A stretch of DNA of 64,000 nucleotides from a virus, in the UHGV virus genome UHGV-1376088; one strand, written 5' to 3'. The translations under genes were made by a program, and so were the position numbers. Position 1 is the first letter of the stretch. Each line of letters begins with the position of its first letter. Below, one piece after another: positions 13,249 to 48,566 of this stretch. The notes under the pieces were generated by a model. That model did no database searches. It was not told the DNA's origin and saw only the letters and a list, made by a program, of their open reading frames with translations.

Positions 13249-14913
13249 ATGTATATAGTAACAACAGCATTGCCGTATGCAAATGGAGATATCCATTTAG
13301 GTCATATATTAGAGCATATTCAAGCCGATATTTATGTTAGAAGACTTCGTCAATCTTACAATGATGTATATTTTATAGGGGCAGATGACTCCCACGGTAC
13401 TGCTATTGTTTTAGCGGCCGAAAGGGAAGGTATATCCCCAGAAGAACTGATTGAACGTTCGAGAAAAAGACATCATGAAGATATAGCTGGATTCGGCGTA
13501 GAATATGACAATTATTATACTACTCACTCTAAAGAAAATTTTGAACTTGTTAAAAATGCGTATTCTGATCTTGTTTCAAAAGGCCTGATTCGCAGAAAAA
13601 CAATTCAACAATTGTATGATCCGGAAAAAGAAATGTTTCTTCCTGATCGTTTTGTAAAAGGCGAATGTCCTGAATGCCATGCTCAAGAACAATATGGTGA
13701 CAACTGTGACTCTTGCGGTGCCGTTTATGAAGCATATAATCTGATCAATCCGAAATCGACATTAACTGGCGCCACTCCCGTATTGAAAGAGACGGAGCAT
13801 TTGTTCTTGAAAACAAGAATGAAATATAAACTGCTAAGAGAATGGGCTAAGCCTGGCTTTGAAATAAGAATGAATAGAAGTGCCAAATCCAGAATCGAAA
13901 ACTGGATTGGAGAGAATGGTGAAAACCTAAAAGAATGGTGTATCTCTAGGGATGCCCCATACTTCGGATTTAAGATTCCAAATGAAGAAAACAAATATTT
14001 TTACGTTTGGATGGATGCTCCATTTGGTTACATCGCTTCTTACCAAAACTTCCGCAATGCCGAGTTAGAAAAAGGCAACTCTCACCACAAACATGAAAAG
14101 TGTGCAAATCTTGTCCACTTTGTAGGAAAAGATATTTTACGGTTTCATACCATATTTTGGCCAATTGTTTTAGATGCTACGAATTTGAATCTGCCTTATA
14201 AAATATTTAGCCATGGTTTTGTTACTGTAAATGGCGAAAAAATGTCCAAATCGAAAGGGACATTTATTACTGCTAGAAAATTTTTGGATTCAGGAATCGA
14301 TCCGGAGCTTTTACGTTATTACTTTGCATCTAAACTTGGAAATAACGAAAAAGATGTTAACTTCGATATCGAAGACTTTGTAAGAACCATTAATGATGAT
14401 TTGATAGGAAAGCTGATAAATATTCCATCTCGCTTGGGCGCTATAATTAATAAGGCTTATGGCGGAAGAATTATAAGACCAGCCTGTTATGAAAATGATG
14501 AAAATGGTTCATATGCAATGTCGTCTTTGTCCGTTATACCTTATTTGGAGATATCAATTAATGGCGGTGATTATGCTACCGCAATCTCCCATGCATTAAA
14601 TATTGCAGCTAGAATTAATAATAGGATAGAATCTCTAAAAATATGGGAAGCAATGGATAAAAATTGTGATGACTTTAGGAAGTCTACTCTTCATGAGCAC
14701 TGCTCTGAAATGCTGATTCTGATACTTTTTGTATTTCAAGCATTAAGTCCAATTATGCCAAAGCTTTACGACAAATTTTTGCAATTTATGAACATTCTGG
14801 ATCCAAAGCTTCCATATGATCAAATCTCCGAAGATGGACACTATATCAATGAATATGAGCATTTACATAAACGGCTTGTATTGTTGGAAGTAAAATCTAA
14901 ACTTCTGGATTAA
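13249..14913 (+). CDS. metG: methionyl-tRNA synthetase (class I aaRS)
   Basis: 'ALPYANGDIHLGH' HIGH motif; zinc knuckle 'CPECHAQEQYGDNCDSCGAVY' (compare E. coli MetRS CPKC...C..CG); 'KMSKSKGT' KMSKS motif; 554 aa. Confidence 0.85.
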   Translation: MYIVTTALPYANGDIHLGHILEHIQADIYVRRLRQSYNDVYFIGADDSHGTAIVLAAEREGISPEELIERSRKRHHEDIAGFGVEYDNYYTTHSKENFELVKNAYSDLVSKGLIRRKTIQQLYDPEKEMFLPDRFVKGECPECHAQEQYGDNCDSCGAVYEAYNLINPKSTLTGATPVLKETEHLFLKTRMKYKLLREWAKPGFEIRMNRSAKSRIENWIGENGENLKEWCISRDAPYFGFKIPNEENKYFYVWMDAPFGYIASYQNFRNAELEKGNSHHKHEKCANLVHFVGKDILRFHTIFWPIVLDATNLNLPYKIFSHGFVTVNGEKMSKSKGTFITARKFLDSGIDPELLRYYFASKLGNNEKDVNFDIEDFVRTINDDLIGKLINIPSRLGAIINKAYGGRIIRPACYENDENGSYAMSSLSVIPYLEISINGGDYATAISHALNIAARINNRIESLKIWEAMDKNCDDFRKSTLHEHCSEMLILILFVFQALSPIMPKLYDKFLQFMNILDPKLPYDQISEDGHYINEYEHLHKRLVLLEVKSKLLD

Positions 14914-14948: not shown

Positions 14949-16217
14949 ATGGAAAATATTTATCAAGTGGCAAATGGTGTCGTTAAGTTCGACAAGGATA
15001 TTGACCCTAATCTTTACAAAAAGAATTTGCCTGCCGGCTTTTATACAACGGCCTCATCCAGAGAGAGTGTATTCTTGAAGCAAACCGAACCTTTGACAAT
15101 TCCATCTAAGGTTTATGGCGATTCGACTGATCGTATGAATCGAATTGTTAAGTCTTTTGAAGCTTCCAATAAGAATCTTGGCGTGCTGCTTTATGGTGAA
15201 TCCGGTTCCGGTAAATCTCTATTGGCTAAACAAGTTTGCATTAAACTTTCAGAAGAATATCCGATTATTATTGTGTTGCCAGAGCATATCGATATCATTG
15301 AAAAATTCATTGAAAATATTGATGACCGATGTGTATTTTTCATTGATGAATTTGAAAAGATGTTTGAAAAGCCATCATATCAAAGCGGACTGTTGAGCGT
15401 TATTGATGGAACAAGTTCTAAAAAGAATTTATTCTTGTTCACAGCTAATGAAAAAGGCATGATTAATAAGTTCTTCTTTAATCGCCCGGGACGTATTCGT
15501 TATGCTTACGAATATGATACCTTGCCGGATTCTGTTGTTTTAGAAGTTCTGGAAGATATTCTGGATAATAAAGGTAAGGTAAAAGAAATTGCATCTATTA
15601 TCTCCTATCTGAAGGAACCATCATTCGATGTTGTTTGCAGTATTGCGCAAGAAGCAAATTTATATCCAGATTTTACTATTCAGCAGTTGATGGATGGATA
15701 TAACTCAGAGATCTACTCTGAAAGCTTAATGCATTCCGACTGTACATTATTTATAAATGGGCAAGATTTTTATTCGGCATTCAAAGAATTGTTCTCAAAA
15801 TACGGTTTAAATCTTCAAGATTGCAATCCGTCCTATATTGCCAGTGAATCTGCAATTGAATTGAAAGAACAATCTTTAAATCCGTACGAGCCAAAAACAT
15901 CACTGAATGTAATAGACTATTCTATGCGGGCATTTTGTGATGGTGCCAAACGGAGTTACATTATATGTATATACCTCGATATTTCGAAAATGGAATTAGA
16001 GGTTAAGGATAGAACCTCTATTATTAGCAATGTTCGAATTTCTGAAGAGGAAATCGGTAGCACTGCAGAAATGATCCTGCACTTAATGCAAACTCTGAAT
16101 AAAGAGGTTCCGGATTCTGTAAAAGAAGAAGTGTATAATATTCTCAGTTCAAATGATGTGAAATTGGTAAGTAAGCCTGCACAAAAGCTGAAGATTAATA
16201 CATTTGGCCGTTTTTAG
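14949..16217 (+). CDS. AAA-family ATPase
   Basis: Walker A 'GESGSGKSLLAK', Walker B 'VFFIDEFE', sensor 'NRPGRIRY'. Confidence 0.6.
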   Translation: MENIYQVANGVVKFDKDIDPNLYKKNLPAGFYTTASSRESVFLKQTEPLTIPSKVYGDSTDRMNRIVKSFEASNKNLGVLLYGESGSGKSLLAKQVCIKLSEEYPIIIVLPEHIDIIEKFIENIDDRCVFFIDEFEKMFEKPSYQSGLLSVIDGTSSKKNLFLFTANEKGMINKFFFNRPGRIRYAYEYDTLPDSVVLEVLEDILDNKGKVKEIASIISYLKEPSFDVVCSIAQEANLYPDFTIQQLMDGYNSEIYSESLMHSDCTLFINGQDFYSAFKELFSKYGLNLQDCNPSYIASESAIELKEQSLNPYEPKTSLNVIDYSMRAFCDGAKRSYIICIYLDISKMELEVKDRTSIISNVRISEEEIGSTAEMILHLMQTLNKEVPDSVKEEVYNILSSNDVKLVSKPAQKLKINTFGRF

Positions 16218-17515: not shown

Positions 17516-17704
17516 ATGGAACTAAAAGAAAATGGAGTTTACCGCCACTATAAAGGCGGAGAATACAAATTAATAACTATTGGTGAACTTGAACACGACT
17601 TATCTCAAGTCGTTGTCTATAAAAGCATCACTAATGATAGAGTTTTTGTAAGACCTTTAGAGGAATTTGAAGATAAATTCGAATTCCTATATATGGGAGG
17701 GTAG
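17516..17704 (+). CDS. DUF1653-like small protein
   Basis: 'YRHYKGGEYKLI...VVYKS...VFVRPLEEFEDKFEF' matches the DUF1653 pattern; SD 'aaagg'; 3' end overlaps the tRNA start. Confidence 0.4.
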   Translation: MELKENGVYRHYKGGEYKLITIGELEHDLSQVVVYKSITNDRVFVRPLEEFEDKFEFLYMGG

Positions 17705-17772
17705 CTCAGTGGTCCGAGAGCGGGCGACTCATAATCGCTTGGTCACGGGTTCGAATCCCGTCCTTCCCACCA
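17695..17772 (+). tRNA. tRNA-Met/Ile2 (anticodon CAU)
   Basis: Acceptor gggaggg/ccttccc; D-arm gctc-agtggtccga-gagc; anticodon loop cuCAUaa; T-loop ttcgaat; CCA encoded. Confidence 0.8.
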
Positions 17773-17791
17773 TCTATATCTAGGAAAGCAA

Positions 17792-17965
17792 ATGTTGAAC
17801 GATAGCGATTACATGGACAACAATGGCGGCTATTACGAACTTGTTTGCATTGCCAAAATGGAATCTGATTCATCTTTAATGGCAGTCTATATCAATAAGC
17901 AGACGTATGAATATTGCGTTTGCCCTGCTTCTGAATTTGAAGAGAAGTTTAAACCCGTCCCATGA
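17792..17965 (+). CDS. DUF1653-like small protein (paralog)
   Basis: 'GGYYELVCIAKMESDSSLMAVY...EFEEKFKP' resembles the 17516 ORF; SD 'aggaaa'; below the track size cut-off (57 aa). Confidence 0.35.
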   Translation: MLNDSDYMDNNGGYYELVCIAKMESDSSLMAVYINKQTYEYCVCPASEFEEKFKPVP

Positions 17966-18304
17966 AAATCTGGAAAATCAAAAAGATACAAATCAAAGAA
18001 ATCCTTGAAACAAAAGGATATTTCTTTTGTAATAAATATAAGCATTCACATGACAAAGCAAGAAGAATTATGCGCGAGCTGTGCAAAGAGGGTTTAGCAG
18101 AAAAGTGTGCTAGCCCTGCTGGACAAGTGGATGCTGTTTGTATTAGGGCCATAAAATGAGCACAACGACTATTTTACTACTTGTTCTTGCCAGTATCGTT
18201 GGCGGAATTATTATCGGGTTTATTGTTTTTGCTTTGTATTTTGCAAAAGGTTTCAAAATTAATTTCTAAACCTTATCTTAGAATTTTTGTCTAAAGGAAA
18301 CAAA

Positions 18305-19882
18305 ATGGCATCACCATTATTTAAAACTTCTCGTATCAATGTCTCTACGGGAGCATCTGTATCTGTACAGTCCAATAAGGTTAATACAACAAATGAATCC
18401 GGCGGCACTGCTTATGCTATGACACATCAGCATGCCCTTGCGCAATATGCTGTAACCGGTATGCTTGACGGCTATCTTCATGTTGATGGTCGAACTCAGC
18501 TGTCTCGTATTATTGAGCTGGCTGAAAAATGTAACAATAAGTATGTTGCGCAAGTTGCAATTTATGCCCACGAAAAAGGCTTCATGAAAGATACTTCTGC
18601 TTTGTTGCTGGGATATCTGATGAAAAAAGACCGCGATTTGTTTAACGCAATTTTTAAACGTATCATTACAAATGGCCGAATGTTAAGAACTTTCGTTCAA
18701 ATCATTCGTTCCGGTACTTTTGGCAATCGCAGTTTTGGTACAAATGCCAAACGCCAAATCCAAGATTGGCTAAATTCCGCAACAGACAAAACAATTATTA
18801 ATGCCTCCATTGGTAATGATCCGTCTCTGAAAGACATTATCAAAATGGTTCATCCAAAAGCACCAAATGAAAATCGTAACCAACTTTATCGTTGGGTTTG
18901 CGATATGGATTACCAGGAAGATAAACTTCCTGAACAGCTTCAACTGTATTTAAAATTGAAGCGTAATCCAGAAAAAGCAGAAGAACTGCCGGATTTGCCG
19001 TTCCAAATGTATACCTCTATGGGTTTAACAACAGAAGGTTGGAAACATATTGCTAATAATGCGACATGGAATCAGACCCGTATGAACTTGGCAACATTTG
19101 AGCGACATGGTGTATTTGGTGATAAAAGTTTTGCCGACAGAATTGCTGAGAAGCTTACATCTGAGCGTGATATCATTCGAAGTAAAGCTATGCCATTTGC
19201 CATTTTCTCTGCCTTTAAAAAGGCGGGCGATATTAGCTATAATATCCGCAAGGCTTTGAATAAAGCTGCAGAAATTTCTCTGCAAAATGTTCCGAAATTG
19301 GAAGGTAAAACAGTTGTTGCTGTTGACCGTTCTGGATCTATGTCCAGTCTGATTAATAGTCGCTCAACTGTTCGTGTAATGGATGTTGCAGCTGTTCTTG
19401 TTGCTGCTTTGAAAAACAAAAATCCAGATTTGGAAATTGTTTTATTCAATGACACAGCGTCCATTTATAAGCCAAAAGGCAAAACTCTTTTTGGTATCAG
19501 CGAAGAGCTTTCTCGTATGGCAAGCGGCGGAACAGATTGTGGTGCCGCAATGAAGTTTATCAAAAACCGGTACACAGATAAAGGCATGCCCGATAATATC
19601 ATCATGATTTCAGACAATGAATCATGGTTAGGTATGAGCAAGAATTTCTGGACATCCACAGGAACAGTTGAACAACTGAAATTAATTCGTCGTTCAAATC
19701 CTAATACCCGAATGATCAATATTGACGTAACTCCAGGTTCAAGTTCACAAACAGTTCCTGAAGAATACGTACTAAATATCGGCGGCTTTAATGACGCAGT
19801 ATTCCAAATCGCATCATTGTTCTTTAATTCTAAAGGCAATAAAGACTTTTGGATTTCTGAAATTAATAAAGTAGAAATTTAA
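18305..19882 (+). CDS. rsr: Ro60 ortholog (Rsr-like; TROVE domain + C-terminal vWA/MIDAS)
   Basis: ~525 aa; C-terminal vWA with MIDAS 'VVAVDRSGSMSS'; N-terminal helical TROVE-like region; SD 'aaggaa' before ATG (the track start 18287 is a TTG); followed by tRNA-like Y-RNA candidates. Confidence 0.65.
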   Translation: MASPLFKTSRINVSTGASVSVQSNKVNTTNESGGTAYAMTHQHALAQYAVTGMLDGYLHVDGRTQLSRIIELAEKCNNKYVAQVAIYAHEKGFMKDTSALLLGYLMKKDRDLFNAIFKRIITNGRMLRTFVQIIRSGTFGNRSFGTNAKRQIQDWLNSATDKTIINASIGNDPSLKDIIKMVHPKAPNENRNQLYRWVCDMDYQEDKLPEQLQLYLKLKRNPEKAEELPDLPFQMYTSMGLTTEGWKHIANNATWNQTRMNLATFERHGVFGDKSFADRIAEKLTSERDIIRSKAMPFAIFSAFKKAGDISYNIRKALNKAAEISLQNVPKLEGKTVVAVDRSGSMSSLINSRSTVRVMDVAAVLVAALKNKNPDLEIVLFNDTASIYKPKGKTLFGISEELSRMASGGTDCGAAMKFIKNRYTDKGMPDNIIMISDNESWLGMSKNFWTSTGTVEQLKLIRRSNPNTRMINIDVTPGSSSQTVPEEYVLNIGGFNDAVFQIASLFFNSKGNKDFWISEINKVEI

Positions 19883-19996
19883 TTTTAGATTTACAAAACA
19901 AAAATGTGTGGTTTAATCACTTCTACTGAGTAAGTAGAGTAATAGGTATCTCATTTCTTGTTTTCGGGGTACCTATTGCTATGTTTACTTTAGAGT

Positions 19997-20073
19997 CTAA
20001 GTGTAGCGCAGTCCGGTAGCGCATCTGCTTTGGGAGCAGAGGGTTGCAGGTTCGAATCCTGCCTCTTAGACCA
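19997..20073 (+). tRNA. tRNA-Pro (anticodon UGG)
   Basis: D-arm gcgc-agtccggta-gcgc; anticodon loop uuUGGga; T-loop ttcgaat; one U-U mismatch in the acceptor; CCA encoded. Confidence 0.7.
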
Positions 20074-20086
20074 CATTACAATTTTC

Positions 20087-20210
20087 GGGTGGTTAGTTTA
20101 ATGGGAAAACATTAAGTAATCTTTCTACTATTGTCTGAAAAGAATGCTTGAGAGATTTACATTTCACGGCTAATGAAAAGATACAGGTTCGAGTCCTGTA
20201 CCACCCTCCA
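20087..20210 (+). ncRNA. tRNA-like RNA (Y RNA / YrlA-like candidate) with ~47-nt insert in place of anticodon arm
   Basis: Perfect 7-bp acceptor gggtggt/accaccc; D-arm gttt-aatggga-aaac; canonical T-arm acagg-ttcgagt-cctgt; CCA; 124 nt total with no canonical anticodon stem-loop. Confidence 0.5.
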
Positions 20211-20215
20211 TATAT

Positions 20216-20357
20216 GGGCTGTTGGCGAAATTGGTAGACGCAAGGGTCATTTATAACCTATCAAACTTGTCCGATAGGAATGCCGATAGGTTTACATTTT
20301 TAAATTGAAAACTTAAGGACAACCCTCGATTTGCAGGTTCGACTCCTGCACAGCCCG
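20216..20357 (+). ncRNA. tRNA-like RNA (Y RNA / YrlA-like candidate) with ~65-nt insert in place of anticodon arm
   Basis: Perfect acceptor gggctgt/acagccc; class-II-type D-arm gcg-aaattggtaga-cgc; T-arm gcagg-ttcgact-cctgc; long-range helix agggt...accct enclosing ~72 nt with internal hairpins (cctatc/gatagg, ccgatagg repeated twice). Confidence 0.5.
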
Positions 20358-20367
20358 CCCTTTTAAT

Positions 20368-20619
20368 GCGAAGATAGTTTAATTGGTAAAACGCCACGCA
20401 AATCTTAGAATAATAACCATTATGTAGAGCCAAGTGGCTCGAAGAGCATACTCTATATTAAGATAGGGCTGGGTGCAATCCCGGGTATAGGCTAACGATC
20501 TATACTGAATGTAAATATTTTATGTCGAAAGACAGATAGCTCAATCCTTTAAGGAATGGTCTAAGATGGATAATTTCCGCGGTAAAGTGGTCATGCGGTG
20601 TCGATAGCTGCTCTTCGCT
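20368..20619 (+). ncRNA. tRNA-like element with ~175-nt insertion (intron-containing tRNA or large Y-like RNA)
   Basis: 5' gcgaaga-ta-gttt-aattggta-aaac D-arm and 3' ...gcggt-gtcgata-gctgc-tcttcgc acceptor pair 7/7 across 250 nt; the insert contains repeat A. Confidence 0.35.
20419..20516 (+). repeat. repeat element A (shared with 63372-63510)
   Basis: attatgtagRgccaagtggYtcgaagMgca ... ccgggtatagRYtaacgaYctatactgaaYRtaaa is shared between the two loci. Confidence 0.6.
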
Positions 20620-20655
20620 CCCTATTTAATTAACTGAATATCCAAAGGATTTAAG

Positions 20656-21183
20656 ATGCAGACGATTGCAATAAACCTAATAGGTGCACCCGGAACGGGC
20701 AAAAGCACAATAGCATCTGAGCTCTTTGCCAAGATGAAGTGGCTTGGATATGATGTTGAGTTGGTTTCCGAATACGCAAAAGAATTGGTTTGGGAACAAA
20801 GAAACGAAACTTTCAAGAATGAACTGTATCTATTTGCAAAACAGCATCATAGAATGTTTAGATTAAATGGTAAGGTGAAGTATATTATTACAGACCGCCC
20901 ATTAATTTTGTCTATTTTTTATAATCAAAAATATGGAAATGGCAGCAAAACATTCCGGCAGCTTGTATTGGAAGAAACAAATAAGTTTCAAAATATCAAT
21001 GTATTTCTGAATAGAACCAAACCATATGTTCAAAATGGCAGAAATCAAAGTGAAGAAGAATCCAATGAATTTGCAAAAGAAATATTCGAATCTCTTGAAA
21101 AATATTGCAATGGATATCTAATTCTAGACGCTGTTGAAAACCAGGCGTCTGAACATATATTGAATTTTGCAAAACAAGAATAA
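20656..21183 (+). CDS. P-loop NTPase/kinase-like protein
   Basis: Walker A 'GAPGTGKST' at the N-terminus, 'ITDRP' Walker-B-like; 175 aa; fold resembles small nucleoside/nucleotide kinases. Confidence 0.5.
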   Translation: MQTIAINLIGAPGTGKSTIASELFAKMKWLGYDVELVSEYAKELVWEQRNETFKNELYLFAKQHHRMFRLNGKVKYIITDRPLILSIFYNQKYGNGSKTFRQLVLEETNKFQNINVFLNRTKPYVQNGRNQSEEESNEFAKEIFESLEKYCNGYLILDAVENQASEHILNFAKQE

Positions 21184-21196
21184 GAATAGGTACAAC

Positions 21197-21397
21197 ATGA
21201 AAGAGTACACATTCTCATACAGGTTTGATAATAAAGCTTGGTCTTTCAGTATTTATGCAAACAGCGAAGAAGAAGCCAAGAGAAAGTTCTGGGCTTTAAA
21301 AGAAAATGGCAAATATTGCGGCGAGATTGTATGCAAAGTGAATGCTACAAAGCCGTACAGTTTTATTAAATCCATTTTGTCGAAGTTTAAGACATAA
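21197..21397 (+). CDS. small hypothetical protein
   Basis: ATG-initiated 66-aa ORF (the track start 21167 is a TTG). Confidence 0.35.
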   Translation: MKEYTFSYRFDNKAWSFSIYANSEEEAKRKFWALKENGKYCGEIVCKVNATKPYSFIKSILSKFKT

Positions 21398-21413
21398 GTT
21401 TAAGTTTAAATGC

Positions 21414-21506
21414 GCTCCCGTACCATAAAAGGATAATGGAACTGACTTCTAATCAGTAAGCCAAACGAAGGCGAGTATGCGGGTTCGAGTCCTGCCGGGA
21501 GTGCCA
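21414..21506 (+). tRNA. class-II-shaped tRNA with anticodon UCU (Arg codon AGA), long variable arm, G73
   Basis: Acceptor gctcccg/cgggagt; D ccat/atgg; anticodon stem actga/tcagt with loop cuUCUaa; 21-nt variable arm with gcc/ggc hairpin; T-loop ttcgagt; CCA encoded. Confidence 0.6.
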
Positions 21507-21612
21507 AAATGCCACAATCTATATATTATTATGGATTTCATTAAAAATAATGTTACTATTGATGAAGTAACTGGATGTTGGAATTGGAATAAATCTGTAA
21601 CAAGTGCAGGTT

Positions 21613-21870
21613 ATGGTCAATCTTAGCCCTACCGGGCATGCCAAATATAAAGGATTCAATATGGTATATTTAAATCTATTTGTGAAATATGTGAATCCAC
21701 GTGTTAGTGGAAGTACGGTTATTCAGGTCAAAGAAGACCATTTGAATTCTGAATTTGACTATATAGTTGAAGATGCTCTTTATGAAAAATTGAAAGAGTC
21801 TCTTCAAATGCCAGAAAGAGTTATAATTGAGAATATTGTAATTCTTGGGCGTTGTGAAAAAGACGATTAA
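21613..21870 (+). CDS. hypothetical protein
   Basis: ORF after the tRNA; weak RBS; start uncertain (ATG at 21613 or 21661). Confidence 0.3.
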   Translation: MVNLSPTGHAKYKGFNMVYLNLFVKYVNPRVSGSTVIQVKEDHLNSEFDYIVEDALYEKLKESLQMPERVIIENIVILGRCEKDD

Positions 21871-22075
21871 GACATAAACTGCCTGGCATGATGCAGTTTT
21901 AACTATCTAATCTGCCATTATTATTCTCAGTCTGGCATTCGCCAAAATGTTGCCGCATTTTGAGAATGATAAAATCATAGATGGTTATTTTCTGGTCCTA
22001 GCAGTCAATTTAGTTGACCCAGTACACTGTAAGCTGGAACTAAAGATAACGATTTAAACCCTGTTCTCCCTAAGC

Positions 22076-22146
22076 AATAATGTAGTTCAGTGGTAGAGCG
22101 TCTGCAATTTGGCAGAATGGCGGTGGTTCGATTCCACCCTTTATTG
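22076..22146 (+). tRNA. tRNA-like gene with non-canonical (6- or 8-nt) anticodon loop, identity undetermined (UUU/UUG region)
   Basis: Acceptor aataatg/ctttatt (6/7 pairs); D gttc-agtggta-gagc; stem tctgc/gcaga around 'aatttg'; T-arm ggtgg-ttcgatt-ccacc; one nt shorter than canonical; possible pseudogene or frameshift-type tRNA. Confidence 0.4.
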
Positions 22147-22631
22147 ACGAGAACAGGTACTCAATTTAATAATGAATCTTTATTCAGATTCATTTAGTCT
22201 GACAATGGTGTGATGAAATCTTAAGGGCTGTTCTTTGGATATTCTTAGTCTAATATTGAAATGTGCATTTCTTTATTGGGCTCTGTTTTATTTGAAGATA
22301 AAGCTTAAAAGGTTGCGATAGCAATAAAAACAATAAGGTGTTGCACAGCGCCTGTTTGGAGTATATTGTGAATGCTTGCACGTGTGCCGCGGAGGTACAA
22401 GGTTCCCGGAGTGGGATAAGTCAGACTAAATGTATTTGAAGCTAATTAAAGCTTAAAGATTTAAGCCCTGCTGATTTCTTATATAATATTGTTTATTATG
22501 ATTATTCTTATATTAGATAAATACTATTTTATCTTTTTCATTTTTCAGCAGGCATATTTAAGCCCTATTAGTTTATTCCGCAATATAGCTAAAATATTGT
22601 TCTAAAAATTAATAGGCAAAATAAAGATTAT

Positions 22632-22706
22632 AGCGAATTGGTGTAATTGGTAACACACAGGGCTCATAACCCTGAGTTATAGGTTCGAGTCCTATGTTCG
22701 CTTCCA
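22632..22706 (+). tRNA. tRNA-Met/Ile2 (anticodon CAU), second copy
   Basis: Acceptor agcgaat/gttcgct; D gtgt-aattggta-acac; anticodon stem caggg/ccctg with loop cuCAUaa; T-loop ttcgagt; CCA. Confidence 0.8.
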
Positions 22707-23491
22707 GATCCTTTCCTAGTGAGGATAACCACTGGTGACTTTTATGGATTTTGAACAGTGAAAATTCTTTGCCCCTTATGCAATAGTTAAGGCGTTTTCC
22801 GTGATGCGAGAAGTTCACGGCGCAATCCACAACGCGATAATCGTGGCGCTGCCCTTCGAAGCGATACGTTAGGGGTCTTCCTTTAGGCTTAATAAAAGGT
22901 AGTTTTTAGAGATTTATATTAAAAGCTCTATAGTTCTGTAGAATACAGAGCAATGGGTTCGTTGCCTGTTCCCATTGCTATGTGTTTTGACTTCCCGGCG
23001 GCCACTGGTTAATGGTCTGACTTAGATTGGTTCAAAGAAATCAATCCCCAAGGTGAGGGTATCGCACCTGTTGTAGGTTGTTCATAAAACCTTCGGTCTT
23101 TTGTGCTCTTTATTCCTTAATACAGGAGCATCGATTGGGTAATGAGACATAAGGTCCCAGTGGGTTTTAGCTTTTTTAACCACGCGAGTGATGTCGCAAA
23201 AGCAAAATGCATTTATGTATTGTTTACAGTATATAAAGTGATAGGTTTCTGCAGGACCTATTGCTGTATGTATTAATATCCCGCGAACCTTCGGTAAATG
23301 GTTCACCTTGCCAAAAGGAAAATTGGAAGTCTGGCATTGCTATGGAAGAATGCTGGTTCGTTGGTCCATCCTTAAAACCGATAAGCTTTTTGTGCATTTA
23401 CGGCTTTGACGATAAATGCCCCGAACTATTAATGTGAATGTATAGCCAGAGTGAATCCTTCTGGGGAGTGATGTCCGAAAAGGATTACAAT

Positions 23492-23578
23492 GCGAATGTG
23501 GCGAAATTTGGTATACGCGCTTGTCTTAGAAGCAGGTGTCCTAGTGGCGTGTGGGTTCGATCCCCTCCATTCGCACCA
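23492..23578 (+). tRNA. tRNA-Leu (anticodon UAG)
   Basis: Class II: D gcg-aaatttggtata-cgc; loop cuUAGaa; ~14-nt variable arm; T-loop ttcgatc; A73; CCA. Confidence 0.7.
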
Positions 23579-23584
23579 ATTCAT

Positions 23585-23660
23585 GCTGGAATAGCTCAAT
23601 TGGTAGAGCAACCATTTTGTAAGCGGTAGGTTGTTAGTTCGATTCTAATTTCCAGCACCA
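23585..23660 (+). tRNA. tRNA-Thr (anticodon UGU)
   Basis: Acceptor gctggaa/ttccagc; D gctc-aattggta-gagc; loop uuUGUaa; T-loop ttcgatt; CCA. Confidence 0.75.
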
Positions 23661-23663
23661 AAT

Positions 23664-23754
23664 GGAGGGACGGCAACGACGGTGGTGTTGCGGCAGACTG
23701 TAAATCTGTTCCGAAAGGTAAACATTGTAGGTTCGACTCCTATTCCCTCCACCA
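23664..23754 (+). tRNA. tRNA-Tyr (anticodon GUA)
   Basis: Acceptor ggaggga/tccctcc; loop cuGUAaa; long variable arm; T-loop ttcgact; CCA. Confidence 0.75.
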
Positions 23755-23758
23755 AATA

Positions 23759-23847
23759 CCGCGAGTGGCGTAACAAGGCAACCGCATCAGACTTAAAATC
23801 TGAGGATCGTAATGATCGTGTGGGTTCGACTCCCACCTCGCGGACCA
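23759..23847 (+). tRNA. tRNA-Leu (anticodon UAA)
   Basis: Acceptor ccgcgag/ctcgcgg; anticodon stem tcaga/tctga with loop cuUAAaa; variable arm hairpin; T-stem gtggg/cccac; A73; CCA. Confidence 0.75.
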
Positions 23848-23893
23848 ATACTGTATTGATAAATTCAATGCTATATAAAAATAGGTTTGATTT

Positions 23894-24217
23894 ATGAAAA
23901 CAGTTAAATTATCAGATTGCTCAAAGTTCCCCAAAGCTAAAGAAGATGGGGAACTTTTTGCCAGAACAAAACTTTTCCATGAGCTTTATAAAACCGAACA
24001 TACCTTAAGAATCGATTTTGATGGTACTTATGGAATTGCTCATTCGTTTTTAGAAGGACTCTTCGGTTTTCTTATTGATTCTGGATGTTTAACAATGAAA
24101 GAGATATTCAATAGGCTAACTATTAAAGCGGATGAATATCCCTATATAATTGAGGGAATATTCTGTATATTGGTGGAATACGATGAAAGAAACTTTGATA
24201 ATAGCCCCTGTAGTTGA
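23894..24217 (+). CDS. hypothetical protein
   Basis: 107-aa ORF immediately after the tRNA block. Confidence 0.4.
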   Translation: MKTVKLSDCSKFPKAKEDGELFARTKLFHELYKTEHTLRIDFDGTYGIAHSFLEGLFGFLIDSGCLTMKEIFNRLTIKADEYPYIIEGIFCILVEYDERNFDNSPCS

Positions 24218-24350
24218 AGTTAAAAAGATCCCTTCGTTTGCCGAGTTTATAGAAATGAGAACGCGGCAACTTCTAAGAGAATTAGACAAGCATTCAAAAA
24301 ATCTAGAAAAAGAGACTAATAAGCTTGTAGATATTATCTCTAATAGTTAA
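24183..24350 (+). CDS. small hypothetical protein
   Basis: ATG with 'ggtgg' RBS; overlaps the previous ORF's 3' end; speculative. Confidence 0.3.
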   Translation: MKETLIIAPVVEVKKIPSFAEFIEMRTRQLLRELDKHSKNLEKETNKLVDIISNS

Positions 24351-24377
24351 AATTTTAAAACAATAAAGTGTAGATGT

Positions 24378-24452
24378 TGGCATGTAGCTCAGCGGCAGAG
24401 CAGACGGCTGTTAACCGTCCGGTCGTAGGTTCGATCCCTACCGTGCCAGCCA
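24378..24452 (+). tRNA. tRNA-Asn (anticodon GUU)
   Basis: D gctc-agcggcag-agc; anticodon stem gacgg/ccgtc with loop cuGUUaa; T-loop ttcgatc; CCA. Confidence 0.75.
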
Positions 24453-24646
24453 AAAGATTATGGGCAGGTAGTTTAAGAGGAAAAAACCACGTGGGTGTAT
24501 ACCTTCGACGTTATTGGAATCGAGGCCAATTCTGTCCACTAATTTCCCATTTCCCATATATTTCAATCATCAATCCTTTCCACAGTACAGGGTTAAAATA
24601 TTTTGACTAATAGCGCCAACTAGCGGTCAAAGCTAATGGGAATTTC

Positions 24647-24733
24647 ACAACCATGACGGAATTGGTAGACGTATCGGTACTTAATGTGCCGAAGCCGGAG
24701 AGTGGCGTGCAGGTTCAAATCCTGCTGGTTGTG
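24647..24733 (+). tRNA. class-II tRNA, anticodon UAA (Leu-type) with U37 and G73
   Basis: Acceptor acaacca/tggttgt; D acg-gaattggtaga-cgt; anticodon stem cggta/tgccg with loop cuUAAug; 16-nt variable arm; T-loop ttcaaat; no CCA encoded. Confidence 0.6.
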
Positions 24734-24754
24734 ATACATAACAGAGGTGTAAAC

Positions 24755-24955
24755 ATGTCCAAGAAAAGATGTTTTGTTCTTTACGAACGAGAAGGCAAAA
24801 GAAATTCGGCCTTTATTGAAATTGATGATGTCTATATTACTGGTACTTTATTTAGATCTTTGAAATCTCATGTTTCTGATAAGATAGCTGACCTATATAC
24901 GGATAGGTATGGCTATGTATTAATTTTGGATTTCAAAGTTATTGCCTCTGTTTAG
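24755..24955 (+). CDS. small hypothetical protein
   Basis: ATG with SD 'agagg' just after the tRNA; the track ORF 24653 starts inside the tRNA. Confidence 0.4.
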   Translation: MSKKRCFVLYEREGKRNSAFIEIDDVYITGTLFRSLKSHVSDKIADLYTDRYGYVLILDFKVIASV

Positions 24956-24972
24956 TTTAAACGAATTTTAAT

Positions 24973-25046
24973 GCGGGCATGGTATAGAGGTTGTGCCTTA
25001 GCCTTCCAAGCTAATGAGAGGGATTCGAGTTCCCTTGCCCGCTCCA
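24973..25046 (+). tRNA. tRNA-Gly (anticodon UCC)
   Basis: Acceptor gcgggca/tgcccgc; anticodon stem ttagc/gctaa with loop cuUCCaa; T-arm aggga-ttcgagt-tccct; CCA. Confidence 0.75.
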
Positions 25047-25231
25047 ACAATTTAAGACAGGCGCTTGCAAGTTTGAGGGAAGTCATATTAGGCCCCGTGT
25101 CCATACAGCCTCCACGCACTCTGCCTGTCTAACCCTTATGTCCTGAATGCCTGCTACGACTACATCTGACTTTTTATCGGACATTAAGTGTCGAGCTATT
25201 TTTGTCAGGACTCTCTATAAAAGGTAACAGA

Positions 25232-25669
25232 ATGTCTGACTGGGAATATCAATCTTTTATTGCAGAAGACGATTTACTTCCTACCTTCTGTTATAGAATT
25301 AAGCATAGTGGTAATACTATTTCTATTCAATTTGGGCCTGTAAAACAATACAACGGTCTGCCGGTTTATTCTGTATGTCTATCAATTTATCGAAAACGTA
25401 AGCGTATTGATATTGATTTTAGCGCTCGATCTGTAACAGGAACTATTGGGACTACAGGATTACTGTTAGCAAAGCAAAGCTTCGACTTGTTTATCAAAGA
25501 ATTCTTTGATGAAGTGGATACGGATGGTGTTATCTTATCAGTACAAGGTGCTGATGTCAGACGATATAAAGTTTATAAGCGTACCCTTGAAAGAATGGGG
25601 TATACTGAAGGTAAGCTTTTGGGCTCTTTATGTATGAGTAAAGTTTACTATCGAGAAAGTCTTAAATGA
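25232..25669 (+). CDS. hypothetical protein
   Basis: ATG with SD 'aaaagg' (the track start 25202 is a TTG). Confidence 0.45.
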   Translation: MSDWEYQSFIAEDDLLPTFCYRIKHSGNTISIQFGPVKQYNGLPVYSVCLSIYRKRKRIDIDFSARSVTGTIGTTGLLLAKQSFDLFIKEFFDEVDTDGVILSVQGADVRRYKVYKRTLERMGYTEGKLLGSLCMSKVYYRESLK

Positions 25670-25689
25670 CTAAAATTTATATATTTTTC

Positions 25690-25780
25690 ACCACCTTAGC
25701 TTAATGGTAAAGCAGCGAGCTTATACCTCGTAACGACAGATAATCGGCTGATCTGGGTTCGAGTCCCGGAGGTGGTACCA
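25690..25780 (+). tRNA. class-II-shaped tRNA with anticodon UAU (Ile AUA), long variable arm
   Basis: Acceptor accacct/aggtggt; D gctt-aatggta-aagc; anticodon stem gcgag/ctcgt with loop cuUAUac; ~21-nt variable region; T-loop ttcgagt; A73; CCA. Confidence 0.55.
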
Positions 25781-25806
25781 TTAGAAAGTGTCGAGAGAGT
25801 TAAAAT

Positions 25807-25894
25807 GGAGAAGTGGCAGAGTGGACTATTGCACCTGACTTGAAATCAGCCGATCGGAAACGGTCCGTGGGTTCGAATCCCATCTTCTCCTCCA
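25807..25894 (+). tRNA. tRNA-Ser (anticodon UGA)
   Basis: Acceptor ggagaag/cttctcc; D gca/tgc; anticodon stem ctga/tcag with loop cuUGAaa; long variable arm; T-loop ttcgaat; U73; CCA. Confidence 0.65.
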
Positions 25895-47024: not shown

Positions 47025-48566
47025 ATGGAAGATAAAAATTTGTGTTTGAGCTTTTTAGCGCCTATGATGAATTTGTCTCAAACATTTTTAAATATTATCG
47101 AAAAAATTGAAAACGAAGAATGCTCTATTGACTCTTCGTTTCCTGAAAAGTTATTCAATAAGACGCCAAAAGAAGATGTTTTAAACGCGATTGAAACTCT
47201 CATTGATTATAATAATTTATTTTTGATTGACTTTGATGAGTATTCGAAAAAAGTAAAAACCTTATCAGATTTCGTTGGTAATTGTAACAACACAATTCTT
47301 TTCAGAAACTTTAGAACTGATAAGGGTCGTGAAGTTTGCTATATCAATAAGCAGATCCCAGACATTTATTCAGATAGGATTAAAGAGATCCATTCTAATA
47401 TTAGACCCTTAATAGGCCGCCTAACTCCTAGACTGAATTTAATTAAAAATCAGAATTCTACAGATTCATATGTAGACATTAATTACGATCAGATGGCCAT
47501 CAAATCAGATATTTCTTCGTTCTTTCGCTCTGTAAGATTTGAAAATGTTATTAAATACCTCTCTAAGACTTTCCTTGTTAAAAATATACTTATGTATAGC
47601 AAAAGTCAAACTGAAAACAAAGAGCTTAGAGTATTTGAGCGAATTGAAATTGCTTTATGGGGATTTATTAGTTGTCTATTCCATAATGGTATTATCCCTA
47701 CTGGAGCTAGATATGCAAATGATTTAGCCGCCTGCTATTTGAATAATCTTGTTTTTAATACCTTTAGAAAGGACATGCTATATTCGAATCGTGCAAGAAT
47801 CTATGTATATGTAGATGACCTGCTCTTTCTCGGAGAGGAAGGCAATGTTAAAGAATTTTATGCGGAATTCGAAAAGGCTATCAATAAAGGCGGACTATAT
47901 CTGAATTATAAGAAGACTCAATATTTTTATCCTAAAAATGGAATTCTTGAGTATTCTTCTTTGGGCAGAACTAGAAAATTTGACTTCACAACTGGTTTTG
48001 TTTCTAAAGTTGATTCGAAAGCCCGCAAAAAATGTTTGGATATTATTAAAGAGCGCCGCGAATACGATGCCTCTGAGAAGGGTATCATTAATTATGCATT
48101 ATATATGAGGCATGGAGCCAATAAGATTGTCAATCCAGATATATTAATGCATTCTTATTTTAATGATAAATCCGAACTGTGGGATAAACTTATAGCAGGT
48201 GAATTGAATCTGAAATTGAATAAGAGTATTTTTGATCCCACTAATCTGAAATATAAGGATATATGTATAATGTCAAAAGATATTGATGTCGGTTTTCTTT
48301 CCGCTCATCAATTCCTTGACATTACAGATGCGATAGCAGAATTTGTAAAACTGTTTATCCTCGACAATCCTTTTGGTCTTAACCTATATGGAATTAATCT
48401 AACAGAATCCAATGAGGGTAATTATAATTTAATTCTGAATTTGGTAAGACAACGATCCAGAGGCACTGCGAATATAATCCCATGTCCTTTAATTTTCAGA
48501 AAAGATTTCCTAAACGGACTTTATGTAGAAGGCAAAGATGAAAGCGCTTTAAATGGATGGATATAA
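47025..48566 (+). CDS. reverse transcriptase (standalone, unclassified)
   Basis: Motif A 'IKSDISSFFRSV', motif B' 'GIIPTGARYANDLAACYLNNL', motif C 'YVYVDDLLFLG', motif D 'LYLNYKKTQY'; extra N- and C-terminal regions; SD 'aaggaag'. Confidence 0.7.
   Translation: MEDKNLCLSFLAPMMNLSQTFLNIIEKIENEECSIDSSFPEKLFNKTPKEDVLNAIETLIDYNNLFLIDFDEYSKKVKTLSDFVGNCNNTILFRNFRTDKGREVCYINKQIPDIYSDRIKEIHSNIRPLIGRLTPRLNLIKNQNSTDSYVDINYDQMAIKSDISSFFRSVRFENVIKYLSKTFLVKNILMYSKSQTENKELRVFERIEIALWGFISCLFHNGIIPTGARYANDLAACYLNNLVFNTFRKDMLYSNRARIYVYVDDLLFLGEEGNVKEFYAEFEKAINKGGLYLNYKKTQYFYPKNGILEYSSLGRTRKFDFTTGFVSKVDSKARKKCLDIIKERREYDASEKGIINYALYMRHGANKIVNPDILMHSYFNDKSELWDKLIAGELNLKLNKSIFDPTNLKYKDICIMSKDIDVGFLSAHQFLDITDAIAEFVKLFILDNPFGLNLYGINLTESNEGNYNLILNLVRQRSRGTANIIPCPLIFRKDFLNGLYVEGKDESALNGWI

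Follow-up and report, generated by a model that had tools for sequence, protein, structure and literature searches.

The Y RNAs of bacteria and phages are tRNA mimics whose genes share a strand with the Ro60 gene and lie within about 4 kb of it; the motif they have in common is GNCGAAN0-1G (PMC4201824). The "anticodon" loop of D. radiodurans Yrn1 has 6 nucleotides (nt) (PMC4201824), and the Yrl RNAs of Thermus phage phiLo were identified through a CGAA motif (PMC12135203). A second point of reference is the decoding of AUA, since the charging efficiency of E. coli isoleucyl-tRNA synthetase (IleRS) with a UAU anticodon is about 1% of that with LAU (PMC3575796). Both subjects meet in the tRNA island of UHGV virus genome UHGV-1376088, of which a stretch of 64,000 nt (the window) was analyzed. 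Next to a Ro60 ortholog, this island holds four tRNA genes of odd form: a tRNA-Arg(UCU) at 21414 and a tRNA-Ile(UAU) at 25690, each with an extra hairpin in its variable (V) region, and two genes, 22076 and 24647, with unusual anticodon arms (Table 1).

The four genes are read here as two cognate tRNAs with accessory protein-docking hairpins and two Ro60-associated, Y-RNA-like tRNA mimics, probably the correct account on the comparative sequence evidence below. The tRNAs at 21414 and 25690 have class-I bodies with a 16-nt hairpin at the 5′ side of the V loop and, as elongator tRNAs, would supply A-ending codons that this phage of 36% GC uses heavily. The hairpins are sequence-specific modules, to which a protein able to read such a loop would dock. 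A candidate reader of the GAU hairpin of tRNA-Ile is IleRS, whose preferred anticodon loop it reproduces; for the CGAA hairpin of tRNA-Arg, the candidates are the phage Ro60, encoded 1.5 kb upstream, and arginyl-tRNA synthetase (ArgRS). 22076 and 24647 would be tRNA-shaped non-coding RNAs, Y-RNA-like partners of Ro60. The analysis shows the structures of the four genes with their conservation and covariation, the standard decoding of AGA, AUA, and UUA, the presence of the motifs, and the nearness to Ro60; which protein binds the hairpins and the mimics, and what the binding brings about, we infer.

ARAGORN finds 14 tRNA genes in the island, all on the + strand from 17695 to 25894, with the four odd ones among them. 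A preliminary description had located these four from the sequence, and ARAGORN and Rfam agree that they are there. The features it listed are also seen: a 21-nt variable arm with a hairpin, G73, and the anticodon UCU at 21414 (ARAGORN, sequence, and folding), a variable region of about 21 nt with a UAU anticodon at 25690, and a UAA anticodon, U37, and G73 in 24647. The loop of 22076, for which 6 or 8 nt had been allowed, has 6 (AAUUUG, 22106–22111), not 8. CCA is encoded in all twelve ordinary tRNAs of the island and is absent from 22076 and 24647, in both of which base −1 pairs with base 73 (sequence reading and folding). Sequencing artefacts were considered as the source of the odd features and rejected, as the same features recur in orthologs from independent assemblies (ENA, Logan, JGI, IMG/VR).

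Extra hairpins of tRNA-Ile(UAU) and tRNA-Arg(UCU)

The variable region of the tRNA-Ile(UAU) has 21 nt (AACGACAGAUAAUCGGCUGAU), and the gene encodes A73, CCA, and the anticodon loop CUUAUAC. Save for U33A, the loop of its extra hairpin is the anticodon loop of tRNA-Ile(GAU), CUGAUAA. A scan of IMG/VR for UAU tRNAs, in which only the 3′ half of the anticodon arm and the T loop were fixed and the V region was left unconstrained, yielded 67 distinct genes, every one of them long-V. In 65 of the 67, a 7-nt loop NNGAUNN is closed by a stem of 3 or more base pairs (bp), with loops of CAGAUAA (51), CAGAUUA (9), CUGAUAA (2), and the UAGAU type (3). In the same scan of bacteria, sampled at one genome per species, 33 true tRNAs are found among the 120 matches listed, and all 33 have the GAU loop; their hosts include Microbulbifer, Actinomyces, Nitrospirales, Planctomycetota, Verrucomicrobiales, and Flavonifractor. 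Fifteen different stems close the GAU loop in the viral and bacterial sets. The family alignment of 32 sequences is 99.2% paired, with a covariation score of 0.745 vs 0.21 in shuffles, and all three pairs of the V helix change on both sides.

GAU loops were also met by chance near phage Ro60 genes, in lineages with other anticodon stems (CUGAUAA on contig L593; GGG-CAGAUAA-CCC on L620). In Actinomyces oris and A. acetigenes the GAU-hairpin tRNA lies in syntenic chromosomal DNA, and the Microbulbifer copies share the tRNA alone. The GAU loop was also considered as a pairing partner of the T loop or of the anticodon in the same tRNA; both ideas were rejected, as the partner sequences vary without covariation. 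A tRNA-Ile(UAU) gene is found in none of the phages related to the window; across its anticodon arm, V region, and a portion of the T arm, the gene at 25690 is 93% identical to a tRNA-Ile from Acinetobacter phage qsb1, and it is similar to the one in Vibrio Thalassavirus phages. It thus appears to be a recent acquisition. No description of such an arm was found in the literature searched on long variable arms of tRNA-Ile(UAU) or of phage tRNAs, and the GAU "pseudo-anticodon" hairpin of this widespread family appears undescribed there. Since E. coli IleRS charges UAU poorly, at about 1% of LAU (PMC3575796), an auxiliary display of GAU has an obvious possible use. This hairpin is the most interesting lead of the analysis.

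The tRNA-Arg(UCU) likewise has a 21-nt variable region (AAGCCAAACGAAGGCGAGUAU) with a 3-bp hairpin, together with G73 and an encoded CCA. The gene, of 92–93 nt, occurs in six related phages just downstream of Ro60 and tRNA-Pro, and in one relative (contig L011) this locus is occupied by an Arg(UCU) gene of 76 nt. In alignment with E. coli argU, the phage genes have an acceptor of the same type, also with G73-CCA, and the long form is set apart by a clean 16-nt insertion, as it is against the 76-nt ortholog. The hairpin stems vary (GCC/GGC, GCU/GGC, CCC/GGG, UCCC/GGGA, GGCC/GGCC, UGCC/GGCA), whereas the loops (AAACGAA, AAUCGAA, AACGAA, AUCGAA, GUCGAA) all end in CGAA with GG always next. CGAAGG was fixed in the search pattern for the IMG/VR members but free in the six members found by synteny. 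Across the 14 members of the family, the cloverleaf is 98.5% paired, with covariation, and an A follows G18G19 (position 20) in 12. A scan for long-V Arg(UCU) genes without the loop constraint gave mostly unrelated tRNAs among the matches listed, and the breadth of the family is not set by it; blastn of the 76-nt tRNA against E. coli gave no match. The CGAA of the hairpin, followed by G, fits both the anticodon loop of CGN-type tRNA-Arg and the Y-RNA motif for Ro60.

The geometry of the two extra arms is not that of class II tRNAs. In these (Ser, Leu, Tyr), the V stem has 4–7 bp, the loop 3–5 nt, and the flanks 0–2 unpaired nt, and the D stem has 3 bp (Leu/Ser); 21414 and 25690 instead share a 3-bp V stem, a 7-nt loop, a 6-nt 3′ spacer, and a 4-bp D stem. 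In the Arg family as a whole, the extra arm is not of the Ser type because it has a 3–4 bp stem, a 6–7-nt loop, and a 5–7-nt 3′ spacer. Nor do the two genes resemble allo- or nev-tRNAs, defined by an 8/4 or 9/3 acceptor/T configuration or a Leu/Ser-derived body and by Ser/Leu charging against the anticodon: both have a 7/5 configuration and a class-I body, and neither AGA nor AUA shows a Ser/Leu signal. Normal variable arms are seen in the tRNA-Ser, Leu, and Tyr genes of the island itself. The preliminary description had taken the V hairpin and G73 of 21414 for serine-identity features; the argU alignment makes G73 native to this type of isoacceptor and therefore not a serine signal, and with the arm geometry the suggestion of a serine identity falls.

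The meaning of the codons was examined by aligning window proteins with their orthologs on seven related contigs, in 120 gene-locus pairs. AGA in the window faces Arg in 56%, Lys in 18%, and Ser in 3.8% of cases, with 80% Arg for the comparison codon CGT; in all, 57 aligned AGA positions face CGN codons and 13 face Ser residues. AUA faces Ile in 53%, Val in 15%, Leu in 11%, and Met in 7%, with ATT at 68% Ile, 16% Val, and 6% Leu for comparison, and UUA faces Leu in 80%. An alignment of the window's methionyl-tRNA synthetase (MetRS) with Neisseriaceae enzymes is consistent with standard decoding. With AGA accounting for 38% of Arg codons, more than any other, and AUA for 17% of Ile codons, a reassignment would be conspicuous. 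The codon reassignment once proposed for these genes is rejected by the alignments: as far as orthologous proteins can tell, the genetic code is not rewritten by the four odd genes, and AGA, AUA, and UUA are decoded normally.

An argU-type tRNA-Arg(UCU) is marked by C35, U36, A20, A or G at 73, and an argU-like acceptor stem (E. coli argU was taken by coordinates). With this acceptor type, G73, and CCA, and with AGA aligned to Arg/Lys, the gene at 21414 is predicted to be a functional argU-type tRNA-Arg(UCU) that reads AGA as Arg and carries a 16-nt hairpin. For an AUA-decoding tRNA-Ile, the marks are AUA behaving as Ile, A73, and A35-U36-A37. In the window's proteins AUA aligns with Ile and Val, and the gene at 25690 has A73 and the loop CUUAUAC; this gene is predicted to be a working tRNA-Ile(UAU) that reads AUA as Ile and belongs to the phage and bacterial family described above.

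Several related observations were made along the way. In both families, the first acceptor pair is most often a G1·U72 wobble (13/32 in Ile(UAU), 8/14 in Arg(UCU)). At about 2985–3068 of contig L002 (Escherichia phage ESCO45, Felix-O1-like), and also in records of Salmonella and Campylobacter phages, there is an unannotated tRNA-like element with a UCU anticodon. It has an acceptor stem, an anticodon arm, a 23-nt variable region, a T arm, and CCA, apparently without a D arm and without the CGAA loop; its T arm is identical to that of 21414. On IMG/VR contig L315, an open reading frame (ORF) at 6355–7629 that by eye resembles the RNA ligase RtcB lies a few kb from another long-V tRNA-Arg(UCU) without the CGAA loop. 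Class-II-shaped tRNAs of large phages include Gly(UCC) of 87 nt (L004 838–924, Pontus), Ile(GAU) of 87 nt and Asn(GUU) of 83 nt (L115, a 488-kb IMG/VR contig), and, among L620, L588, and L624, Thr(UGU) of 85 nt, Cys(GCA) of 86 nt, and Pro(UGG) of 85 nt; the loops of their V hairpins are GNRA-like or of other kinds. The converse oddity is seen in Felix-O1-like phages (L002 3652–3728, 4146–4223, 4887–4965), whose tRNA-Leu genes have only 77–79 nt, a class-I length.

Non-decoding tRNA-shaped genes and the Ro60 ortholog

22076 has a 6-nt "anticodon" loop, a C−1:G73 pair, and no CCA. Orthologs at the same position keep the acceptor, D arm, anticodon stem, and T arm (body 94.6% paired, five pairs changed on both sides), with covarying T stems (GGUGG/CCACC, GACGG/CCGUC, CCAGG/CCUGG) and a covarying −1:73 pair (CG in three sequences, GC in two); their loops read CUUUUGU, GCGGAUG, and UGUGU vs AAUUUG in the window. 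Used as a scan pattern, the framework of D arm and anticodon stem in 22076 was not specific and matched common Val, Ala, and Gly tRNAs. 24647 has a tRNA-Leu-type body in which a C32:G38 pair extends the "anticodon" helix to 7 bp, closing a 5-nt loop UUAAU; it also has a C−1:G73 pair and no CCA, and its fold has a z of −4.1. The family of five members is 99.3% paired, with eight pairs changed on both sides; its −1:73 pair covaries (C:G, U:A), and A73 replaces G73 in three members. In the homolog on contig L098, a GAAG tetraloop caps a perfect 7-bp helix. Among cultured phages, BLAST gave no match to 24647. Relatives hold further disabled tRNA-like genes, among them an Ile(GAU)-like one without U33 and a "Val(gac)" with a 6-nt loop.

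The body is thus conserved while the loop is free or disabled, and 22076 and 24647 are therefore neither decoders nor pseudogenes. They would be tRNA-shaped RNAs, not adaptors, with the L-shaped body under selection and the anticodon arm disabled. Frameshifting by 22076, raised in the preliminary description, calls for an anticodon loop of altered length on an otherwise chargeable tRNA, with that length conserved. It is unlikely because the ortholog loops vary between 5, 6, and 7 nt, with unrelated sequences, and no CCA is encoded; the −1:73 pair is formed as well. The same description had suggested decoys for host anticodon nucleases. The idea of a non-adaptor mimic does fit 22076 and 24647, because both behave as conserved non-decoding tRNA mimics, but the evidence points toward Ro60/Y-RNA biology more than toward putative decoys for anticodon nucleases.

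The Ro60 ortholog has a vWA_Ro60 domain (Pfam, E=6e-12) and a weak TROVE match. In phmmer it gives a full-length match to the Ro60 of Thermus phage phiLo (9KOP/9L5Y, E=9e-15) and also matches human Ro60 and D. radiodurans Rsr. The gene is at the same position in every relative examined. The "vWFA protein" encoded before the tRNA island of Felix-O1 was considered as its counterpart and rejected, being a DUF2828/DUF7788 protein with no detectable homology to the Ro60 of the window.

Downstream of the end of Ro60 and on the same strand follow 21414 at 1.5 kb, 22075 at 2.2 kb, and 24646 at 4.8 kb. The Y-RNA motif is found in the Arg hairpin, in 24647, and in an element at 20367–20626. In the hairpin it reads AACGAAGG in the window and GUCGAAGG or AUCGAAGG in relatives. 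In 24647, GCCGAAG (24688–24694) stands just 5′ of the V arm, which is the position of the motif in YrlA, and the L098 homolog keeps ACGAAGG despite its rebuilt arm. As in Y RNAs, tRNA-like D and T arms with tertiary-pair nucleotides are present in both 22076 and 24647, which score 42–51 bits with the Rfam tRNA model and have covarying cloverleaf bodies. Among phage Ro60 loci in IMG/VR, 56 of 78 have tRNAs within 6 kb (6.5 tRNAs on average), several with 6- or 8-nt loops. In Streptomyces phage Coruscant (L568 14076–14149), a "tRNA-OTHER" 2.5 kb downstream of a Ro60-like gene has a 6-nt anticodon loop that matches the Y-RNA motif for Ro60, in an arm CCUCC-GUCGAA-GGAGG, the same hairpin as the CCC-GUCGAA-GGG of the Arg V arm in some relatives; this gene is probably an unrecognized Y RNA in tRNA topology. 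Taken with the adjacent phage Ro60, 22076 and 24647 most likely act as Y-RNA-like tRNA mimics that partner this protein.

Nearer to Ro60, three consecutive tRNA-ended elements have tRNA acceptor, D, and T arms with insertions of 50–190 nt in place of the anticodon arm. Two of the three end in CCC, not CCA. The Rfam tRNA model gives 46.8 bits for 20087–20207, and the elements are also picked up by the intron mode of ARAGORN. The third, of 260 nt, contains GUCGAAAG, which matches the Y-RNA motif. In the orthologs on contigs L009 and L005, the acceptor and T stems covary. Possible identities for these elements are Y-RNA-like RNAs and tRNAs with introns. Over about 1.3 kb (22150–22630 and 22710–23490), the island has no ORF of at least 80 amino acids and no Rfam match and includes GC-richer, structured-looking patches.

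Competing explanations and the surrounding genes

A number of observations weigh against the account preferred here. The motif [GA]NCGAA(N)G occurs 57 times by chance on the + strand of the window, so that only its conservation across relatives counts as evidence; of such conservation, the 24647 family supplies about two independent observations. The CGAA motif is missing from 22076, and no Y-RNA family of Rfam is matched in the window at E<=1. The known YrlA is circularly permuted, with a closed "acceptor" and ends in the Ro60-binding stem, whereas the termini of 22076 and 24647 lie at the acceptor stem, without permutation. CGAA-loop Arg tRNAs are also found on contigs L081, L115, and L116, which are not among the 80 Ro60 loci listed, and other Ro60 phages are without such tRNAs. 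Class-II-shaped phage tRNAs such as the Gly(UCC) of Vibrio phage Pontus and the Ile(GAU) and Asn(GUU) of L115 have V hairpins without a pseudo-anticodon. Finally, the loop of a V arm lies a long way from the site at which class-I synthetases hold the anticodon, so that on geometric grounds recognition in cis by either IleRS or ArgRS is unproven; C35 and U36 of UCU are already read by ArgRS, and a pseudo-anticodon is not obviously needed for Arg.

A bolder proposal is entertained only tentatively. In it, the hairpin genes would form a new class of tRNA that splits synthetase recognition from decoding: a V-region "pseudo-anticodon" would show GAU to IleRS while UAU reads AUA, with no need for lysidine, and the NCG-AA hairpin of the Arg tRNA would be analogous, unless this working tRNA doubles as a Ro60-bound Y RNA.

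It is unlikely that the mimics, and perhaps the extra arms, are countermeasures to host tRNA-targeting defences (PrrC, PARIS, retron, and Septu nucleases), acting independently of Ro60 as uncleavable decoys or resistant tRNAs. Phage tRNAs with altered anticodon loops do evade anticodon nucleases (PMC10264068; PMC11464382; PMC11555353), one ortholog of 22076 reads as Lys(UUU)-like, a classic target of PrrC and PARIS, and the hypervariability of the loops fits an arms race. However, the known evaders keep 7-nt loops and decode, whereas the mimics have loops of 4–6 nt and no CCA. The chromosomal, syntenic Ile(UAU) hairpin gene of Actinomyces argues against a purely anti-defence role, and nothing in the window indicates a target nuclease.

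A neutral origin is more doubtful: the hairpins would be neutral or stabilizing insertions, V-arm expansion being common in tRNAs of large phages, and the tRNA-like genes only processing punctuation for RNase P and RNase Z in a polycistronic island. Unrelated hairpins with GNRA-type loops in other long-V phage tRNAs are compatible with this, and the 76-nt Arg(UCU) ortholog shows that the arm is dispensable for a tRNA. Yet G-A-U is constant in about 98 distinct sequences in which stem and flanks differ, as does the entire acceptor arm, and CGAA is invariant in the Arg members found by synteny. Punctuation, moreover, needs only acceptor and T arms, whereas the D arm, anticodon helix, and V arm are also kept.

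It is very improbable that 22076 and 24647 are pseudogenes in decay or errors of assembly, devoid of function. Their disabled loops, missing CCA, and lower Rfam scores (42 and 51 bits), and the free divergence of the loop sequences among relatives, would fit decay, but compensatory changes hold the stems of both families, the same genes occur in independent assemblies, and the L098 arm is not degraded but rebuilt as a perfect helix with a tetraloop.

Reassignment or mis-incorporation, with seryl-tRNA synthetase charging the UCU tRNA (AGA as Ser), leucyl-tRNA synthetase charging the UAU tRNA (AUA as Leu), and the G73-bearing Leu(UAA)-like gene placing Ser at UUA, can practically be set aside: the unusual features are real (ARAGORN), nematode class-II-shaped tRNAs with Ile and Gly anticodons do receive Leu (PMC3333845), allo-tRNAs do mis-decode (PMC5389517), and low-level mis-incorporation is compatible with the sequence data, but AGA aligns with Arg/Lys (Ser 3.8%), AUA with Ile/Val (Leu 11%, close to the level at ATT), and UUA with Leu, G73 and the acceptor stem of 21414 are argU-like, the hairpins have 3–4 bp stems and long 3′ spacers on class-I D arms with 4-bp stems, and G73 is not conserved in the 24647 family (A73 in 3/5 members).

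The source of the window is a phage of roughly 175–190 kb that encodes MetRS and the Ro60 ortholog. All genes of the window are on one strand and include those for rIIA/rIIB-like proteins and Pol III alpha. The relatives are contigs of 172–188 kb, drawn from metagenomes of human-associated and other origin. Neisseriaceae enzymes are nearest to the MetRS (43–47% identity), which is without their C-terminal tRNA-binding domain and is kept in related phages at 57–74% identity.

Table 1. Positions of the odd tRNA genes, their extra hairpins, and other features of the window
Feature	Position	Strand	Remarks
tRNA-Arg(tct)	21414-21506, 93 nt	+	ARAGORN; Rfam tRNA (RF00005) 53.7 bits
Extra hairpin of tRNA-Arg, GCC-AAACGAA-GGC	21460..21472	+	Y-RNA motif match at 21464
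tRNA-Ile(tat)	25690-25780, 91 nt	+	ARAGORN; Rfam RF00005 61.5 bits
Extra hairpin of tRNA-Ile, CGA-CAGAUAA-UCG	25734..25746	+	
tRNA-???(tt) (22076)	22075-22148	+	ARAGORN; Rfam RF00005 51.0 bits
tRNA-Leu(taa) (24647)	24646-24734	+	ARAGORN; Rfam RF00005 42.0 bits
Three consecutive tRNA-ended elements with large internal insertions	20087-20210, 20214-20362, 20367-20626	+	Between tRNA-Pro and ATPase gene
Ro60 (TROVE + vWA) ortholog	18305..19882	+	Directly upstream of tRNA island
Methionyl-tRNA synthetase (MetRS), full	13249-14913		Pfam tRNA-synt_1g E=3e-137
AAA/STAND-like NTPase	14949-16217		
YadA-like trimeric autotransporter adhesin	7083-8876		
Reverse-transcriptase gene (RVT_1)	47025-48566		

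Comparison with known systems

If the GAU hairpin does help IleRS, it would join lysidine/agmatidine and a mutated IleRS as a third natural solution for AUA. It would then also place natural tRNA identity outside the anticodon and acceptor, by copying the anticodon loop of another isoacceptor, and could be useful for the engineering of orthogonal tRNAs. Binding of the phage Ro60 by the CGAA hairpin and the mimics, if it occurs, would tie Ro60/Y-RNA biology to phage tRNA islands and extend the Y-RNA family to non-permuted members with tRNA topology. For annotation, the warning is that a class-II shape or odd loops in phage tRNA predictions should not be taken for recoding.

The tRNA-Arg(UCU) at 21414 is closest to E. 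coli argU and the T4-type supplementary tRNAs for AGA and AUA, with which it shares the acceptor stem, G73, A20, and the anticodon loop CUUCUAA, as well as the role of supplying a rare A-ending codon that the phage uses heavily. Unlike these, it has a 16-nt hairpin with a CGAA loop in the variable region. Nematode nev-tRNAs and bacterial allo-tRNAs are similar to 21414 and 25690 in having a long variable arm and non-Leu/Ser/Tyr anticodons, including UAU (PMC3333845; PMC5389517). However, they are derived from tRNA-Leu/Ser, have true class-II arms (the allo-tRNAs also an 8/4 or 9/3 configuration), and are charged with Leu or Ser (PMC3333845; PMC5389517), whereas the two phage tRNAs have class-I bodies, a 7/5 configuration, and short sequence-specific hairpins, and their codons behave as Arg and Ile.

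Nuclease-evading phage tRNAs resemble 22076 and 24647 in being phage-encoded, in lying in tRNA islands, and in their non-canonical anticodon loops (PMC10264068; PMC11464382). They retain a 7-nt loop and decode (PMC10264068; PMC11464382), in contrast to 22076 and 24647, whose anticodon arms are disabled and which lack CCA. The Y RNAs (YrlA/Yrn1 and phiLo Yrl1/2) share with the island genes a place beside Ro60 on the same strand and tRNA-like D, T, and V arms (PMC4201824; PMC12135203). Matches to their GNCGAA(N)G or CGAA motif, which is frequent by chance in the window, occur in 24647, at the YrlA position, and in the Arg hairpin, and a 6-nt "anticodon" loop is common to Yrn1 and 22076. Unlike Y RNAs, the island RNAs have open acceptor ends, as in a real tRNA, no long terminal Ro60-binding stem, and no Rfam Y-RNA match, and in 21414 the motif sits in the extra arm of an apparently functional tRNA.

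For the tRNA-Ile(UAU), the nearest parallel is the Mycoplasma mobile tRNA-Ile(UAU) ("Ile3"; bacteria without tilS), in which UAU likewise reads AUA without lysidine (PMC3575796). Both face the same problem, that an ordinary bacterial IleRS charges UAU poorly (PMC3575796). The answer of M. mobile is a substitution in IleRS (Arg865) (PMC3575796), whereas the tRNA at 25690 instead carries a second hairpin that displays GAU.

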